From assembly GCA_965226795.1 (NCBI GenBank), contig CBDDDZ010000005.1:1440001-1504000 (forward strand): a DNA stretch of 64,000 nucleotides. Direction: 5' to 3'. This document shows, one piece after another, positions 51,001 through 57,000 of the stretch (positions within the stretch are counted from its first letter, which is position 1; every line of letters begins with the position of its first letter). Made by a program: the position numbers. The stretch is from Candidatus Latescibacterota bacterium (GTDB taxonomy: Bacteria > Latescibacterota > UBA2968 > GCA-2709665).

Positions 51001-54000
51001 ATTGAGCGAAAACGGAATATTCGCGGATTTCATCATCTGCCGCGCGGTGGAATCACTGGACGACATTCGGAAGAGAAAAATCGAGATTTCAGCGAATATC
51101 TCGGCGGACCGGATTATTTCAGCACCTGACGTCGACAGTATCTATCAGGTACCGCTGGAATACGAAAAGGACCGATTGGGCGAGAAGATCCTGGATGAGT
51201 TCGGCCTCACTCCCAAAAGAACGCCCGACTGGGAGCGTTGGTGTGAACTGTTGGAGATGATTCGTGTACCTAGGGATCGGGTGCGCGTAGCTATGGTAGG
51301 CAAATACGTCGGAATAGGGGATTATGAATTTCAGGATTCCTATATCTCCGTCAATCAATCACTGGAACACGCGGGCGCCCTGTTGGATACCAAGGTCGAG
51401 ATCGAGTGGATCGACTCCAGCCGTCTGGAGCATCACGAGGTTGACGAGGTACTCGGTGGCTATCACGGCATTATTGTACCCGGCGCGTTTGGCGAGGGCG
51501 GCTCTGAGGGTGCCATCAATGCCGTCCGCTACGCCAGGGAAAACCAGGTGCCTTTCCTGGGCCTGTGTTACGGGCTGCAGATGGCTGTTGTGGAATACTC
51601 TCGCCACGTGGCCGGATTGAGCGAAGCGAATTCCGTCGAGATGGACCCCGATACGCCCCATGCGGTAATCGACATTCAGTATACTCAACGGCAGAATATG
51701 GAAGAAAACCGATATGGCGGCACCATGAGGTTGGGAGGGTACGCGGCCGTATTACGACGAGAATCCCGGGTGTTGGACCTCTACGAGCGAACAGGACGGC
51801 TTGAGGAGGATTCCTGGAGGATACAACAACTGCGGCAGCGCCCCGATCAGGCGTTCCGGTGCGGTGTGATCCTGCCAAGCGAGAATGCAGTGATTGAACG
51901 ACATCGGCACCGGTATGAAGTTGCGCCGAAATACGTGGATTTGCTCGAGGAATACGGCCTGTTCTTTTCAGGATTCCACCGCAGAGAGGATGGTGCAAAA
52001 CTGATGGAATTCGTGGAACTGCCCAATCATCCGTTTTTTGTTGCAACCCAGGCACATCCCGAGTTCAAGTCCCGGCTCGAACGTCCCGCGCCGTTGTTTT
52101 ATGGACTTATCAATGCGTCCATCCGTCACTCGGGAACGGGTCAGGAGAAATCCGTTCAGATCGAGATTGAAACATGACACCGGCCTGGGCGGCCCCGGTT
52201 TTGTACGGGGTCTGCCTGTTCTTCGCATTGTTGGCGGGCTGCACGCCGTCGTCCGAACCTTCATCTTCTCATACGGTCTTCGAACCTCCGGATCAGGAGG
52301 CGTGGGGATGGAACACGGTGGTTACCCGGAACGGTCGAAAACGCGCGGAGGTTGCGGCCGGACATTTCCGGAAGTACGATCGAACGCTAACAGCTCTCCT
52401 CGATAGCGGCGTCGCGGTTTCTTTTTACGATGGGTCCGGGATGAAACGGGTATCGGAATTGACGGCTATACAGGCGGAGATTGACGAAGAATCCTGGGAT
52501 ATGGTGGCAATGGGCGAAGTTGCTCTGGTTGCGAATAACGGTACCCGTCTGGAAACCGATACGTTGCGCTGGAGCCGTGAGACAGACAGAATTACGGGAA
52601 ACGGGCGGATGACCCTCCGTCGACCCGACGGAGAGGAGACCGGGGTTGGGTTCGAGGCTTCTTCCGATCTGAAATGGTGGAAAATGCGACAGGTTTCGAC
52701 GCGTCTGGGCGTGGGGGATTCTCTCCGATAACGATCTGCTTTTCTGCAAGCCTCCCCTTTCCTTCCTCTTTTATGCTCTTCTCTCTGTTTTTTTTGCCGT
52801 ATTTCCTGACAACGGCCTCTCCTGTTGACGCAACCGAATTGATTCGTGCGGACCGCAGCGAAACCACGCTGCGGGATTCCGGCGTTTTACGGATTGCAGT
52901 GGGCACGGTCACCTACCAACACCCTGAACGTCTACTCAGCGTAAATGCCGATTCCGCTCGCCTTTGGATTCCCGACGGGGGTATATCAATAGCGAGGTTT
53001 TTCGGTCGAGTTGCGTACCGGGATTCAGCAAGACAACTGGACGCCGCCGCCATGACGTACCTGCCACGCACGGACGTGGCTACTTTTGTGGGTGCGGTGC
53101 GGGTTATCGAAAATGACCGCCTCTTGACTGCCCAGCGGGTGGAGTACCACAAAAAGGAGAACAGGCTGGACGCCGAGGGCGGGGTGACGCTGAGCTACGG
53201 CGGGCAGCGGATTTCATTGCGTGCACCGGCGATGACGTATCATGTGTTGGCCGATTCGGGTTCAGGTACAGGCGGCGTACACGCCGTGCGTTTGCCGGAT
53301 ACACCGGGAGATTCGCTCGCCGTCCGCTCGGACTCGATGCATTTTGCCAACCTGGGAGATCGCCTGCGGTTCCTGGGCCGCGTCCGTATGGATCACGCCG
53401 GTATGCTGGCGGGTGCGCCTCGCGGCCGCTATTTCAGGCGGTTCGACCGCCTGGAACTGGGAGGCGGGACATATGCTGTCTGGATTCAGAACGACGAAAC
53501 TCGGGCTGATTCGGTGACGTTGAGCGCCGAACGGATGCAGGTACAGGGTGCGGGTGGTAATGCGCTCAAAGAAATCGTACTGGTCGGCGCTGCCAGACTG
53601 CGGATGGAGGCAGTGCAGCCGGAGCGAGACGGTGCGCAGGCGGTTCACGCCGATTCGGTTGTGCTTGGCATGGCGGGAGGCCAGATCGTCACCGTAGATG
53701 CATCAGGAGAGGCTTCAACGATGTTGACCGCGCGTGATGGCGCCAGCGTGGACCTAAAGGGCCAGCGAATATGGATTGAGTTTCGGGATGGAGGCCTCGA
53801 TAGCCTGACGGTTCACGGGCACGGCATCGGCGCCTATTTCTCGTCCGATAGCGCAACCGTCAGTCGAATTTCCGGTGGCTCGATTGCGTTTGGTTTCGAA
53901 AGAGGAGCCGTACGATTCGTCGGGATCAAGGAGACTGCCCGATGTACGCACCGTTCGACGGCCGGGAATACCGGTGACATCCAGCTATCGGGGGATCAAG

Positions 54001-57000
54001 TGAAACTGACGTTCGAGGGCGACAGGCTCGCCAATGTTCAGGCGGAAGGCGGAGTTCGAGGCCGATACAAACCGGCGGAATCCGGAGAGGCACCATGATT
54101 TTGAAGGCCCGGAACCTGGTGAAAGCATACAACCGCCAGCGGGTTGTCGATGGTGTCTGCCTCGAGGTGAATCCCGGAGAGGTCGTAGGTCTTCTGGGCC
54201 CAAATGGAGCGGGAAAAACCACCACCTTTCACCTGATTGTGGGACTGGTTCCATGCAGACAGGGGGAGATTTTCCTCGGTGAAGAGGAAATAACCGGCAT
54301 GCCGATGTATATTCGGGCACGGAAGGGCATCGGTTATCTGGCCCAGGAACCCTCGATTTTCCGTAAGCTATCCGTGAAGCAGAACATCCTTGCGGTGCTG
54401 GAAACACTTCATGTGTCACGTGTAGAACAGGAAGCCCGCCTTGAGGCGCTCTTGCAGGAATTGGGACTCTCGAGCCTGGCGAATCGCAGGGCCGACCGGC
54501 TGTCGGGCGGCGAAGCACGCAGACTGGAGATTACACGTGCTCTGGCCAGGCGTCCCAGATTTCTGTTACTGGATGAACCGTTTGCTGGTATTGACCCAAA
54601 GGCGGTAGAAGATATCCAGGCCATTATCCGCACTTTGAAGGACCGGCGGATCGGACTGCTGATTACCGATCACAACGTACGCGAAACCCTGGCGATCACC
54701 GACAGGTCTTATATTCTCTCCTGCGGAAGGATTCTGACCTCCGGCAACCCCGTTGAACTGGCAGAGAATCCGGAGGTGCGGCGGGTATACCTCGGGGATA
54801 GGTTCCGACTGGACTGACGGAAAAATGGGATTGTCACGCGGCCACGTTTTCCGTATTATTTATCAGGTGGCGATTGGGCAACAGATCGAACATCGATCAG
54901 GCAATCGGCTCCGGCCACGTGAAAGTTGAAAAGTTCAAAACTTTGATAATACGAATGTTAATTGACATTTTTCTACGTTAGACCATCCGTTGGGAAGTAT
55001 CGTTTATTTCCATTTCGACCGTCTTACCTGGGAATTCCAAGGGCAAATGATTCAACTGACCCAAACAGTTTCTTTACAACAGAAGTTGGCGCCCCAACTC
55101 ATCCAGTCGTTGCGGCTCCTTCAGACGCCCTCGCTGGAATTGGAACAGTTGATTCAGCAGGAACTGCAGATCAATCCCCTCCTGGAAGTCTCTGAAGAGA
55201 CCAGTCGCGAGGAGGAATGGGGTCTGGAGTCGGACCAAGCGGAAGCGGACGATACCGACACCGAGAGGAAGGAAGCGGACGACTCGGATCCGTCGGAACT
55301 GGAATTTGGCGACGCGACCGTGGCCGACGGACGTTTCGATGAGAACCAGTGGAACGAAATCCTTAACGATTCCGGATATACCGTGCCCCGGCAGGAGTTC
55401 GATCCCAATGCTGAGGACTGGGAGTACGACGGCGCCGAGCAGCAGTCTCTGGAAGCGGAGTTGCAGGCGCAACTGTCTCTAACCGGTTTGGACGTCGGAG
55501 AGCGGAAGATCGGCGAGTACATCATTGGCAATATCGACGAGGATGGCTTCTTGCAGGCGCCGGTCGACGATATTGCTGCGATGCTCGGAGAAGAGACCAG
55601 GACGGTGGAGCGAATTCTGGACGTTATTCAGACATTCGATCCGCCGGGCGTGGGTGCACGGAACCTTCAAGAATGCCTGGCGATCCAGCTTCTTGAGCAT
55701 GGGCTGAAGGATTCTCTCGCGATGCAGATCGTGCGCGAATACTGGGATGATCTGGTGAACCGCCGATACGTAAAGATCTGTCGATCACTGGGTGCGGACC
55801 GCGCAGCAATTGCCAACGCCGAAGGAGTGATCTCGGGCCTGAATCCCAAGCCGATGATCTACAGGGAAGGCCGAATCAATCACAATTTGGTCGTGCCCGA
55901 TCTGGAGGTCCAGAAGGTCGGCGACGAGTATGTGGTTACGCTAATCGACCGCAATCTTCCTTCCCTTCGGGTCAGCCCTGTCTACAGGACACTGCTGAGC
56001 AAGTCCGGTAAGCCAGGGAGCCAGGCCAGAAAGTTCGTCGTGGATCGTCTGAATTCAGCCCGCTGGTTTATCAGCGCGATCAACCAGCGTCGAACCACGA
56101 TGCTCAAGGTCATGCGTTGTATTGTCGACAATCAACGCGCATTCTTCGACAAGGGAGTTGGATTCCTGAAGCCCATGGTGCTCCAGGACGTCGCGGACAG
56201 GGTAAACATGCATGTGTCAACGATCAGCCGGGTGAGTAACGGGAAATACGTACAAACGCCGCACGGTGTTTTGGAGTTGAAGTACTTTTTCGACGGGGGC
56301 TTGGCCCGAAACGACGGCGAAGATATCGCCGCACGGAGTGTAAAACAAAAGATCGCCAGATTGATTGCTGAGGAGAACACCAGAAGGCCTTTGAGTGATC
56401 AGAAAATCACTGACATCCTGAAGGATGAAGGCATCGCTATTGCGCGCCGTACGGTAGCCAAGTATAGAGATCAGTTGAAGATCAATCCGGCCAGGTACAG
56501 AAAGTCCATTTGAACGCGAGAAGGACAAAAGTACAGTCAGAAGACAACCGGCGGAATCTCGAGCGTTGGCGTATTTTCGCTCGGATCCCGCCGGTTTTTC
56601 TTTCCGGACGCCGTTGTGTCCGCTGTTGACGGGGCCCGCTATCCGATTATTTACACGCCGGATTGAACGGCGCTGATTTCGTCCTTTGAGATTTTGTGTA
56701 CACTCTTGGGATTGAAGGTCTGCCGTGTGCCCGACCGGAGCGCAACTTCGATTCTTCCTCCTGTCAGGACGAAAAACTGGAGTAGGAACCCTCCGCCCTG
56801 CATCGACTCGACCTGATATTCCTCTGGGTCCATCCCGTCAACCCATCCAGGAAAATGCGCCCTGAAACGGGCATCCGCGAACACGTTTTGCGGCAGCGCC
56901 ATAACCAGCGTTCCAGGCAGTTCGTTCAGGGCCTCACCGATGGTCCTTCGTATCCCGGCCAGGTAGGGGATCACCTTCCCCGCATAATCGAAGTCGTCCT

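Follow-up and report, generated by a model that had tools for sequence, protein, structure and literature searches.

What does an LPS export bridge carry in a bacterium that encodes no lipid A pathway? The question is raised by an lptC-lptA-lptB locus in a Candidatus Latescibacterota bacterium of the class UBA2968 (here G000; assembly 95.87% complete, 5 contigs), found in the window analyzed here, a stretch of 64,000 nucleotides. To our knowledge, no member of the class has been cultured. LPS loss in cells that retain an outer membrane is rare, with only a handful of lineages known; in the present case it spans a whole class, and the LPS-bearing sister classes of the phylum offer natural controls. 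A preliminary description held that the Lpt bridge must carry another lipid or cargo. That is the most economical reading of the evidence and is supported by it, but "must" is too strong for a cargo that is inferred.

Profile searches give the gene order pyrG-lptC-lptA-like-lptB-rpoN, all on the plus strand. The syntenic block is anchored upstream by gatC (50033..50332, also on the plus strand), followed by the CTP synthase gene pyrG (50390..52177, in an ORF that opens at 50342; PF06418 E 3e-106, PF00117), whose stop codon overlaps the lptC start in an ATGA (52174..52177). lptC (52174..52731) encodes a lipoprotein-type protein of 185 aa with a lipobox ending at Cys23 (PF06835 E 8e-7; TIGR04409 54.8 bits against a cut-off of 38). 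The lptA-like gene (52773..54098, in an ORF that opens at 52674) encodes a long periplasmic beta-jellyroll protein, 441 aa from its likely start, that matches PF03968 above cut-off (E 5e-6) and TIGR03002 at 34.8 bits, below the equivalog cut-off of 71.7. Its predicted structure is all-beta (pLDDT 88.6) and aligns with LptA 2r1a at TM 0.74 and an rmsd of 2.8 A over 131 columns; 4uu4 was also matched. The protein is about three LptA units long, a length class shared with LPS-bearing relatives (ORFs of 397-546 aa). lptB (54095..54817), present as a single copy, encodes the ATPase of the LptB2FG transporter (TIGR04406 337 bits against a cut-off of 240) and is followed by its usual 3' neighbor, the sigma-54 gene rpoN (54990..56513). 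The earlier naming of the locus as LptC, LptA-like and LptB is borne out by TIGR04409, by PF03968 together with the fold match, and by TIGR04406.

The seven components and the order lptC-lptA-lptB-rpoN resemble the E. coli LptB2FGC-A-DE system as described in two reports (PMC5548808, PMC6744409), and the beta-jellyroll folds agree (LptC Z 15.8, rmsd 1.8; LptA/LptH Z 14.6-14.9). Unlike E. coli, the class has no LPS to carry, its LptC is a lipoprotein, and its LptA spans 424-455 aa, whereas the usual LptA is three-fold shorter.

Genes for making the canonical substrate are missing across the class. Among 132 species-level class genomes, many of them closed, and 36 genomes from the rest of the phylum, LpxC was detected in 0/132 versus 36/36 and LpxB in 0/132 versus 30/36, reproducing the earlier class counts for both and the outside count for LpxC. 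An MsbA orthologue was found in 0/132 versus 25/36, in a search limited to 7 scored candidates for each genome, which did not detect it in 11 of the 36 outside genomes. Six-frame searches of G000, with E. coli queries and with profiles built from same-phylum proteins, recovered no orthologue of LpxA, LpxD, LpxC, LpxB, LpxK or LpxL, nor of WaaA, KdsA, KdsB, KdsC or KdsD; the only matches were partial, at the level of hexapeptide repeats and CBS domains. No ABC exporter of G000 falls within the grouping of E. coli and outgroup MsbA in a phylogenetic tree (96/94). MsbA appears to have been lost along with the LPS genes, a new addition to the earlier picture. Strictly defined, an LPS exporter handles a Raetz-pathway product that MsbA has flipped, and the Lpt system encoded here does not fit that definition.

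The earlier claim that lipid A and Kdo genes are both absent stands for lipid A and needs one exception for Kdo. KdsA exceeds its cut-off in 1/132 class genomes; the exception, G033, carries kdsA-kdsC-kdsB-kdsD-like genes within a glycosyltransferase/epimerase cluster, without WaaA. WaaA matches in 2/132 class bins lie on contigs of 2.1 kb and 11.9 kb, share 85-97% identity with Halieaceae and 86-88% with Tectomicrobia/Entotheonella, and are most simply explained as bin contamination. The boundary with the rest of the phylum, described as sharp, is so for LpxC but uneven elsewhere, as families f13/f14 also yielded no KdsA (0/6) and, at the threshold used, no MsbA (0/6). Chance or incompleteness cannot account for 0/132, because many class genomes are single contigs, 92-100% complete, and outside bins only 57-67% complete still show LpxC.

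The loss has left scars: kdsB/kdsA and lpxD/lpxC/lpxA are gone from operons whose synteny is otherwise kept. kdsB lies between gatC and pyrG in the LPS-bearing genomes G139, G164 and G166, where G000 has just 57 bp. The junction of pyrG and lptC holds kdsA in G139 and an lpxL-family acyltransferase in G164, in place of the ATGA overlap of G000. No kds gene occurs between gatC, pyrG and lptC in any of 15 class loci. As previously noted for a bamA-ompH-fabZ cluster lacking lpxD/lpxA, these three genes are directly joined in G000 and in 4/5 other class genomes; in the fifth, fabZ has been relocated into a fab operon.

The export machinery is retained, and the earlier report of class-wide LptF/G and LptD holds. 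LptF/G occur in 129/132 class genomes versus 34/36 in the rest of the phylum (G000 LptF and LptG, PF03739 E 3e-77 and 1e-76). Among 21 class genomes sampled, all have LptB above cut-off (TIGR04406) and all have LptD (PF19838), with PDB LptD sequences also matched; LptE (PF04390) was found in G000 and 4/5 other class genomes, or 5/6. LptC is its own gene in nine class loci and a fused N-terminal domain in six. All six fusions (6/6 loci) belong to f4, the largest family, where LptC heads an LptC-LptA protein of 609-661 aa, a natural fusion that fixes bridge length in one family. The weak LptC detection noted earlier is largely explained by this fusion; it had been assigned to family f3, which in the numbering of this analysis has a normal LptC in 2/2 loci.

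Could these genes be a non-transporting remnant, either a structural tether or decaying, or the pattern an assembly artefact? LptA and LptC diverge fastest (dN/dS 0.30-0.33 and 0.22-0.27) and the LptA score does not reach the family cut-off, but all tested pairs, from three genome pairs, are under purifying selection (0.09-0.33). LptB at 0.09 is constrained like pyrG (reference genes pyrG/rpoN, 0.09-0.12), LptF (0.14-0.15), LptG (0.16-0.18) and LptD (0.23) lie in between, every part is intact across four families, and lpx genes are missing from many closed genomes, which makes decay or artefact highly improbable. Mean within-class identity (LptF 0.47, LptG 0.45, LptD 0.42) is not lower than among LPS-bearing relatives (0.45, 0.43, 0.34). 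The class forms one clade in trees of LptB (SH-aLRT 93-94), LptD (85) and LptG (84); the LptF tree leaves the class clade unresolved, with a single clade not rejected (p-AU 0.20), so that one loss or two would fit.

The rest of the envelope is predicted to be that of a diderm. G000 encodes BamA with POTRA domains and an outer-membrane set of BamA, TamA, LptD, Wzi-like, TolC-like, SprA, OmpH and LolA proteins, and the components previously listed as kept (LptF/G, LptD, LptE, BamA, TamA/B, Lol, MlaD/E and SprA) were all found, the searches recovering LptD_2, LptE, BamA, OmpH, TamA, TamB, LolA, MlaD, MlaE and SprA. On its gene content, the class is very probably an LPS-free diderm lineage with a working Lpt system. 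The case warns against reading lptD and lptFG in a genome annotation as markers of LPS. Cells of this kind, abundant, sponge-associated and marine, would present no lipid A to their hosts.

An LPS-free diderm with Lpt is itself a known kind, as the preliminary description acknowledged, with Sphingomonas, Borrelia and Thermotoga as examples; new here are the loss of MsbA, the LptC-LptA fusion in the largest family, and the absence of CFB-type serine palmitoyltransferase (SPT). A preprint describes Sphingomonas as lacking LpxC, LpxB and WaaA while keeping the entire Lpt system, including LptA, LptD and LptE, with lptFG adjoining its sphingolipid genes, and describes LptF2/G2/C2 of Caulobacter as serving sphingolipids (bioRxiv 10.64898/2026.04.12.717747). 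Like Sphingomonas as described there, with its glycosphingolipid outer leaflet, the class is LPS-free and has a whole Lpt system, one LptFG set and an inferred non-LPS lipid cargo. It differs in that the LPS-free lineage is a whole class of another phylum, LptA has a length of about three units and is joined to LptC in one family, CFB-type SPT is absent, and lptFG and sprA are arranged head-to-head, away from lipid synthesis genes. The CFB-type SPT model NF047600 matched 0/132 class genomes at E<=1e-120, with B. thetaiotaomicron, the control, above the cut-off; in class genomes other than G000, an SPT of alphaproteobacterial type could fall below this threshold. The only two SPT family members of G000 pass the BioF and Kbl cut-offs. 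The earlier failure to see an SPT is thereby extended to the class for the CFB type, and a Sphingomonas-type sphingolipid solution was set aside on this count.

We propose that the lipid A/Kdo pathway and MsbA were deleted in an ancestor of the class, which kept its outer membrane and single Lpt system. The main cargo would be a non-LPS, non-sphingoid glycolipid (probability roughly 0.55), probably a glycosylated diacylglycerol or related lipid, with a flippase other than MsbA; second in line come phosphatidylinositol-based lipids. The lead, if tentative, candidate for its synthesis is a GT2a-radical SAM/SPASM-GT2b cassette that would add two sugars with radical SAM sugar tailoring between. 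GT2a and GT2b are membrane-bound GT2 enzymes with GT21-like (ceramide glucosyltransferase-like) domains, conserved catalytic-type Asp motifs and RxRW. Of 70 class genomes with a completeness of 94% or more, 69 have a GT2b match, versus 7/14 outside, a contrast inflated by the use of a class protein as query and including one match (G003) that is GT2a. The radical SAM gene occurs in 21/21 class versus 8/10 outside genomes. The order GT2a..rSAM-GT2b holds in 14/15 class loci (the contig ends in the fifteenth), with a Wzi-like outer-membrane gene preceding it in 7/7 f4 loci, and the cassette is complete in only 1/5 outside loci. It adjoins no lpt gene, and it is older than the LPS loss, because it is present in LPS-bearing G139 and partly in G141; relatives occur in Bacteroidota, Ignavibacteriota and Calditrichota. 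The searches turned up no flippase common to the whole class: downstream of lptD-dtd-maf-rodZ-priA lies a Wzx-type gene in 7/7 f1-f3 loci and in G000, but in 0/6 f4 loci. If the cassette does make a glycolipid of this kind, that would give a function to a gene set found across FCB bacteria and add a third chemistry, after sphingolipids and lipoproteins, for LPS-free asymmetric outer membranes with a full Lpt system.

Searches of four class genomes, one per family, found no OlsB/GlsB (PF13444), squalene-hopene cyclase (PF13243, with a partial sub-cut-off match in G000) or MGDG synthase (PF06925). Since no tested known substitute is encoded, the outer-leaflet lipid is a well-posed chemical question. 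Together with SPT at 0/132, these absences also suit an outer membrane of ordinary or inositol phospholipids, to which Lpt would pump phospholipids forward at the cost of ATP, a role proposed for it in Thermotoga. Such a cargo needs no MsbA replacement, inositol-1-phosphate synthase is present in 4/4 class genomes tested, and PIP-synthase-like and IPCT/DIPPS-like genes are present, but the PIP synthesis genes occur equally in LPS-bearing G141. The usual candidates for phospholipid traffic, TamA/TamB and MlaDEF, are kept, which would leave a seven-part Lpt with LptE redundant. Thermotoga, Thermus and Deinococcus are deep Terrabacteria-side lineages. Like the class, they have LptB and LptF/G and lack LpxC, LpxB, WaaA and KdsA in the control genomes. 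A published account reports that T. maritima has an Lpt-like permease and that its two membranes have similar lipids (PMC10160955). Unlike the class, with its intact canonical seven parts, these controls have a partial or fused Lpt and match neither LptE nor LptD_2. Phospholipid export is thus a rather unlikely alternative to the glycolipid.

Lipoproteins are a less likely cargo still. In Borrelia burgdorferi, likewise LPS-free with its LptB2FGCAD bridge kept and re-used, knock-down of LptD is reported to trap surface lipoproteins, and the same preprint describes LPS-free spirochetes as lacking LptE and B. burgdorferi LptD as 1146 aa long (bioRxiv 10.1101/2022.12.21.521298). MsbA would not be needed for lipoproteins, whose synthesis takes place at the periplasmic face; G000 also has Lnt and LolA; and class-specific substitutions occur in the LptD jellyroll and first barrel strands and at the LptG Y271 equivalent, which is Trp outside the class and polar or varied inside. 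The Borrelia-type arrangement, with no LptE and an LptD enlarged by a C-terminal extension, is nevertheless not what the class encodes: LptE is kept and LptD measures 771-838 aa (790-932 in LPS-bearing sisters). Lipoproteins are also few (lipobox in about 87 of 4274 called genes, ~2%, by a rough, undercounting rule, with 7-12 expected by chance), and SprA with at least 12 CTD-like proteins, candidate type IX secretion (T9SS) cargo, provides an alternative surface route.

The LptF/G cavity is nearly that of LPS-bearing sisters, with 73 and 44 columns that both groups conserve. Hydrophobic positions in it are kept (LptF L62, L66; LptG F317, Y320), which favors a lipid over a protein as cargo. 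The phosphate-binding residues described for E. coli, LptG K34 and LptF K317 (PMC5548808, PMC6744409), align with Asp and Glu throughout the phylum, whether or not the member bears LPS. Because the phylum offers Lpt systems about 40% identical from sister lineages that differ in LPS, the way in which Lpt selects its substrate can be tested directly. A conserved cavity would also fit a lipid A-like anchor made by unrelated enzymes, or LPS/lipid A taken from neighbors; there is still an orphan GT9 glycosyltransferase, along with a glycan cluster of the Wzx/Wzy type, and sponge samples in which G000-like strains occur are rich in other bacteria. This is very unlikely, as it would require replacements for MsbA and for at least six unrelated enzyme folds, LPS scavenged from outside would need to arrive at the inner membrane, where Lpt begins, and the GT9 falls below every heptosyltransferase cut-off.

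The glycolipid might also bear on protein anchoring. The T9SS translocon, previously named for SprA, is confirmed (SprA/Sov, TIGR04189 637 bits against a cut-off of 200), and it is a speculative, rather doubtful extension that a glycolipid of undescribed type, made by the cassette and exported by Lpt without MsbA, would serve, instead of anionic LPS, as acceptor for PorU/PorZ-like anchoring of T9SS cargo. A C25 peptidase resembling the PorU sortase reaches 237 bits against a cut-off of 420 (1646 of 1901 aa scanned), and in f4 a protein resembling PorZ, the A-LPS carrier, reaches 205 against 260. One CTD protein is encoded within the window itself, at 57932-60118 (TIGR04183 24.3 against a cut-off of 23).

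Genomes of the class UBA2968 have lost the Lpx, Kds, WaaA and MsbA genes and keep an intact LptB2FG, LptC, LptA and LptD under selection, together with LptE and the machinery of a diderm envelope. In the window, the lpt locus occupies the forward strand in the order gatC (50033-50332), pyrG (50390-52177), lptC (52174-52731), an lptA-like gene (52773-54098), lptB (54095-54817) and rpoN (54990-56513). LptC is identified by Pfam and NCBIfam (PF06835, E 8e-7; TIGR04409, 54.8 bits over a cut-off of 38) and LptB by TIGR04406 (337, cut-off 240). The protein between them is of the LptA/LptD_N type (PF03968, E 5e-6; TIGR03002, 34.8 under a cut-off of 71.7). 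Its predicted structure, built on a 16-row alignment, is all-beta with about 30 strands (pLDDT 88.6, pTM 0.82), and the top structural matches are LptD, LptA (2r1a: TM 0.74, rmsd 2.8 Å, 131 columns) and LptH. Promoter and terminator scans gave matches not above chance level. The operon is covered by contigs of four RNA libraries from 3 studies, two of which are single contigs of 11-14 kb that may reflect DNA carry-over. The window also carries tRNA-Gly (18130-18205), tRNA-Arg (43362-43436) and, by appearance, transposase-like ORFs (29056-32244).

Outside this locus, the same genome (5.41 Mb in 5 contigs, completeness 95.87%) encodes lptF-lptG head-to-head with sprA, a 790-aa LptD, lptE, bamA-ompH-fabZ, tamA-tamB, lolA, mlaE-F-D and lnt. 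The head-to-head arrangement of sprA and lptF recurs in 10/11 class genomes and in 3/3 loci examined from elsewhere in the phylum (L037, L057-L070), and in one relative, G001, about 300 kb separate lptF from lptG. A single 773-aa ORF (C2:483115-485436; L044:5116-7434) fuses Lnt, the apolipoprotein N-acyltransferase, to TatC.

Class-wide loss of lipid A synthesis, as claimed in the preliminary description, is borne out by comparison with the 36 genomes of the phylum that lie outside the class. LpxC occurs in 0/132 class genomes versus 36/36 outside, LpxB in 0/132 versus 30/36, WaaA in 2/132 versus 30/36, and KdsA above its cut-off in 1/132 versus 24/36. The window's own genome has no match to E. 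coli WaaA, LpxK, KdsA, KdsB, KdsC, WaaL or WaaP (E 1e-3), and a six-frame search with same-phylum profiles of LpxA/D/C/B/K, WaaA, KdsA/B/D and LpxL (six of the seeds checked by Pfam; LpxH/I/G outside the profile set) recovered hexapeptide repeats or the FabZ half only. Beside such counts, a cryptic or scavenged lipid A is a very unlikely cargo for the Lpt system. Both class matches to WaaA lie on short contigs (2.1 kb and 11.9 kb) of fragmented bins, and their proteins share 85-97% identity with Halieaceae and 86-88% with Tectomicrobia/Entotheonella; given the small contigs and the high identity to other phyla, bin contamination is the simplest reading.

The related claim that the genome has no Kdo gene holds for KdsA, KdsB, KdsC and KdsD, and meets one exception in the class. 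This is G033, the sole class genome with KdsA above the cut-off, from which WaaA is absent; its kdsA-kdsC-radical SAM-kdsB-kdsD(-like) genes (contig C47, L166) sit among glycosyltransferases and epimerases and look like a polysaccharide cluster. For MsbA, TIGR02203 alone was dropped as a test, since no genome truly exceeds its cut-off, and a tree and an orthologue query were used instead. The candidates of two outside genomes, G141 and G139, fall into one group with E. coli MsbA (96/94), which none of the exporters of the window's genome joins. The orthologue query (G141 protein, E<=1e-140, 7 candidates scored per genome) found MsbA in 0/132 class genomes versus 25/36 outside, families f13 and f14 being missed. 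Those two outside families (G162-G167) have LpxC, LpxB, a kdsB-like gene and a low-scoring WaaA, with KdsA in 0/6 and MsbA in 0/6 at the threshold used; theirs is possibly a lipid A core with a different first sugar. An orphan gene of the heptosyltransferase family GT9 (C5:2785082-2786035; L045:7083-8033) persists in the window's genome, which is without an LPS core.

Gene order records the loss. LPS-bearing G139 has gatC-kdsB-pyrG-kdsA-lptC-lptA-lptB-rpoN, G164 has kdsB upstream of pyrG and an LpxL-family gene downstream, and G142 and G149 have kdsD 5' of lptC. In 15/15 class loci (14 others plus the window) the stretch from gatC through pyrG to lptC is free of kds genes, and pyrG directly abuts lptC or its fused form, with an ATGA overlap in the window. 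Likewise, bamA-ompH leads outside the class into lpxD, an lpxC that is usually a fusion with fabZ, and lpxA; in the window's genome and 4/5 other class genomes it leads directly into FabZ (142-156 aa), as had been described for this cluster, and in the fifth, fabZ sits in the fab operon. These comparisons show that kds and lpx genes were deleted from shared operons.

The Lpt genes themselves persist. The earlier statement that LptF/G and LptD are kept class-wide stands, with LptF/G in 129/132 genomes (the three lacking them are 76-86% complete) and LptB and LptD each single-copy in 21/21 class genomes chosen for quality; LptE is found in the window's genome and 4/5 others. Nei-Gojobori dN/dS from three related genome pairs is 0.09 for lptB, 0.14-0.15 for lptF, 0.16-0.18 for lptG, 0.22-0.27 for lptC, 0.30-0.33 for lptA and 0.23 for lptD, with pyrG and rpoN at 0.09-0.12 for reference. 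As judged from its genes, the machine is whole and maintained, and a remnant or an artefactual pattern is the least probable reading of these data. The class forms one clade in trees of LptB (SH-aLRT 93-94), LptD (85) and LptG (84); in the LptF tree this clade is unresolved and not rejected (p-AU 0.20), the test having been run without one unassigned row that nests inside the class. Together these trees argue that the system was inherited, not imported.

LptC had been described as weakly or rarely detected. A fusion largely explains the low count: in family f4 (76 genomes), 6/6 examined loci (L078-L083, from G062, G094, G066, G131, G069 and G065) have a single 609-661 aa ORF between pyrG and lptB in which LptC is fused to LptA. 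Residues 1-190 match a profile built from LptC of both the class and the outside genomes (domain E-values from 1e-9 to 2e-25) and the remainder matches LptA, an assignment given a probability of 99.9 by profile-profile comparison. The lipobox Cys of a predicted lipoprotein anchor is invariant in these fusions. The modelled structure is one continuous beta-jellyroll chain of about 43 strands (pLDDT 84.5), with residues 58-189 resembling LptC (6mjp_C, Z 15.8, rmsd 1.8) and residues 318-437 LptA/LptH (Z 14.6-14.9).

LPS-free diderms with Lpt are an already known phenomenon, and the observation in this class is real. The nearest known case is Sphingomonas: a recent preprint (Uchendu et al., bioRxiv 10.64898/2026.04.12.717747) describes it as being without LpxC, LpxB and WaaA, as encoding every Lpt component and as carrying lptFG next to its sphingolipid genes. 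Borrelia (bioRxiv 10.1101/2022.12.21.521298) and Thermotoga (PMC10160955) supply further precedents, and the control genomes Thermus, Deinococcus and Thermotoga have LptB/F/G without Lpx. Unlike each precedent, the class combines the full canonical Lpt machine with none of the tested substitutes. A 2026 review names Borrelia and Sphingomonas, with Latescibacter absent from the portion searched (300,000 of 525,587 characters). No paper combining Latescibacter, lipid A and lpx was found, and none of those found on UBA2968 concerns envelopes, judged by title and abstract start; an LPS-free, Lpt-keeping class of Latescibacterota is thus a lineage not found in print, subscription papers and supplements lying outside the search. 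Phylum-wide envelope surveys may list class genomes in their tables.

The class Lpt system very probably works. LptB2FG would use ATP to extract an acyl-anchored molecule from the inner membrane, which would then travel along the LptC-LptA-LptD jellyrolls and be delivered via LptDE. A non-LPS glycolipid is the favored cargo, at a probability of roughly 0.55. According to two reports, the lipid A phosphates are bound in Enterobacteria by LptG K34, R133 and R136 and LptF R33 and K317 (PMC5548808, PMC6744409). A charge-switch test of these residues proved uninformative: the columns of E. coli LptG K34 and LptF K317 are Asp and Glu in LPS-bearing and LPS-free members of the phylum alike, so they cannot decide the cargo. 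These acidic residues are comparable to Burkholderia D31 and hint that lipid A in this phylum is not a plain bis-phosphate. Other columns separate the groups: the LptG Y271 equivalent is Trp in 7/7 outside rows and varies among the 11 class rows (E/V/Q/H/N/L), Gly occupies LptF position 323 in 11/11 class rows, and LptD R246 (numbering of the window's genome) is Arg in 6/6 outside rows and hydrophobic in 14/14 class rows. Such differences can stem from kinship alone.

Known LPS substitutes were sought as the cargo. The only two serine palmitoyltransferase-family members of the window's genome exceed the cut-offs of BioF and Kbl, and a CFB-type SPT model matched 0/132 class genomes at E<=1e-120. 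A supposed sphingolipid cluster at C2:481-488 kb (a PLP acyltransferase near an NAD epimerase) proved to be BioF beside lnt-tatC and an rmlB/rmlC-like pair. In four class genomes, one per family, there was no ornithine/glycine lipid N-acyltransferase, GT28 MGDG synthase or squalene-hopene cyclase. Phospholipids are an unlikely alternative to a glycolipid. LPS-free spirochetes are described, in one preprint, as being without LptE and, in B. burgdorferi, as having an LptD of 1146 aa (He et al., bioRxiv 10.1101/2022.12.21.521298), whereas the class keeps LptE and an LptD of 771-838 aa, as in its LPS-bearing sisters. Lipoproteins would be a distinctly improbable cargo; by a rough rule, a lipobox occurs in about 87 of 4274 gene calls versus 7-12 in shuffled sequences.

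For the glycolipid reading, a survey of glycosyltransferases and CDP-alcohol transferases in the gene calls made here for the window's genome yielded a single class-conserved cluster, in which two membrane GT2 genes with Glyco_transf_21 matches flank a radical SAM/SPASM gene (GT2a-rSAM-GT2b, C5:556326-559931). The rSAM gene occurs as one copy in 21/21 genomes of the class and in 8/10 outside it. GT2b, queried with a class protein, matches 69/70 class genomes at least 94% complete (the G003 match being GT2a) versus 7/14 outside. The order GT2a..rSAM-GT2b holds in 14/15 class loci (the contig ends in the fifteenth), two having an extra ORF before rSAM, and in 7/7 f4 loci the gene before the cassette is Wzi-like and of the outer membrane; the cassette is complete in 1/5 outside loci. 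Scores for cassette enzymes against family models were all under the cut-offs, and look-alikes occur in Bacteroidota, Ignavibacteriota and Fibrobacterota. Enzymes of the GT2/GT21-like kind attach sugars to lipid acceptors, and SPASM/twitch rSAM enzymes can oxidise or epimerise sugars. Since the cassette is older than the LPS loss, its product could at most be a minor ancestral glycolipid that took on a larger role once LPS was lost.

The T9SS translocon named in the preliminary description is present, SprA exceeding its family cut-off, and 12 proteins of the genome have a CTD-like C-terminal domain. One secreted 728-aa protein in the window (57932-60118) combines a T9SS-type C-terminal domain with Ig-like, lamin-tail and dockerin domains. 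A C25 peptidase of 1901 aa, which has a propeptide and a CTD and resembles PorU at a score under the cut-off, closes a glycan cluster (C4:19234-39199, L048) comprising Wzi-like, Wzy/O-antigen-ligase-like, GT2, DegT, WecA-like, Wzx, sulfotransferase, two GT4, epimerase and PMT-like genes. Its Wzy/O-antigen-ligase-like gene consists of two overlapping ORFs, possibly through a frameshift or assembly error. PorZ, an anionic-LPS delivery protein in NCBIfam's description, has a like gene in f4 genomes, with a score under the cut-off. In the window's genome, a cluster that by sequence appearance is microcompartment-like (C4:41987-46911; shell proteins, aldehyde dehydrogenase, aldolase, acetate kinase) adjoins a PorZ-like gene. 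The Porphyromonas mode of action of PorU and PorZ is the basis of a further argument: if the class proteins act likewise, a non-LPS acceptor would be required.

Inositol lipids are a second cargo candidate after the cassette product. MIPS occurs in 4/4 class genomes tested, alongside PIP-synthase-like and IPCT/DIPPS-like genes, and inositol lipid genes occur outside the class too. A TPR-GT4-TolC-IPCT/DIPPS-HpnM(MlaC)-HpnN(MMPL) run without squalene-hopene cyclase (C5:2599051-2608160, L099) apparently ties a hopanoid-type exporter to an inositol lipid enzyme. Relatives of the IPCT gene occur in 5/5 class genomes; as the HpnM/HpnN linkage was seen only in the window's genome and G006 and the run has its own exporter, it is a weaker candidate source of Lpt cargo. 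A Wzx-type flippase gene lies downstream of the lptD gene run in families f1-f3, not in f4. Finally, a 2337-aa type I PKS (KS-AT-ER-KR) is accompanied by a PlsC acyltransferase and an HpnB/CruG-like GT2 (C5:3077952-3087232, L050), a cluster that resembles the sponge-symbiont Sup PKS.
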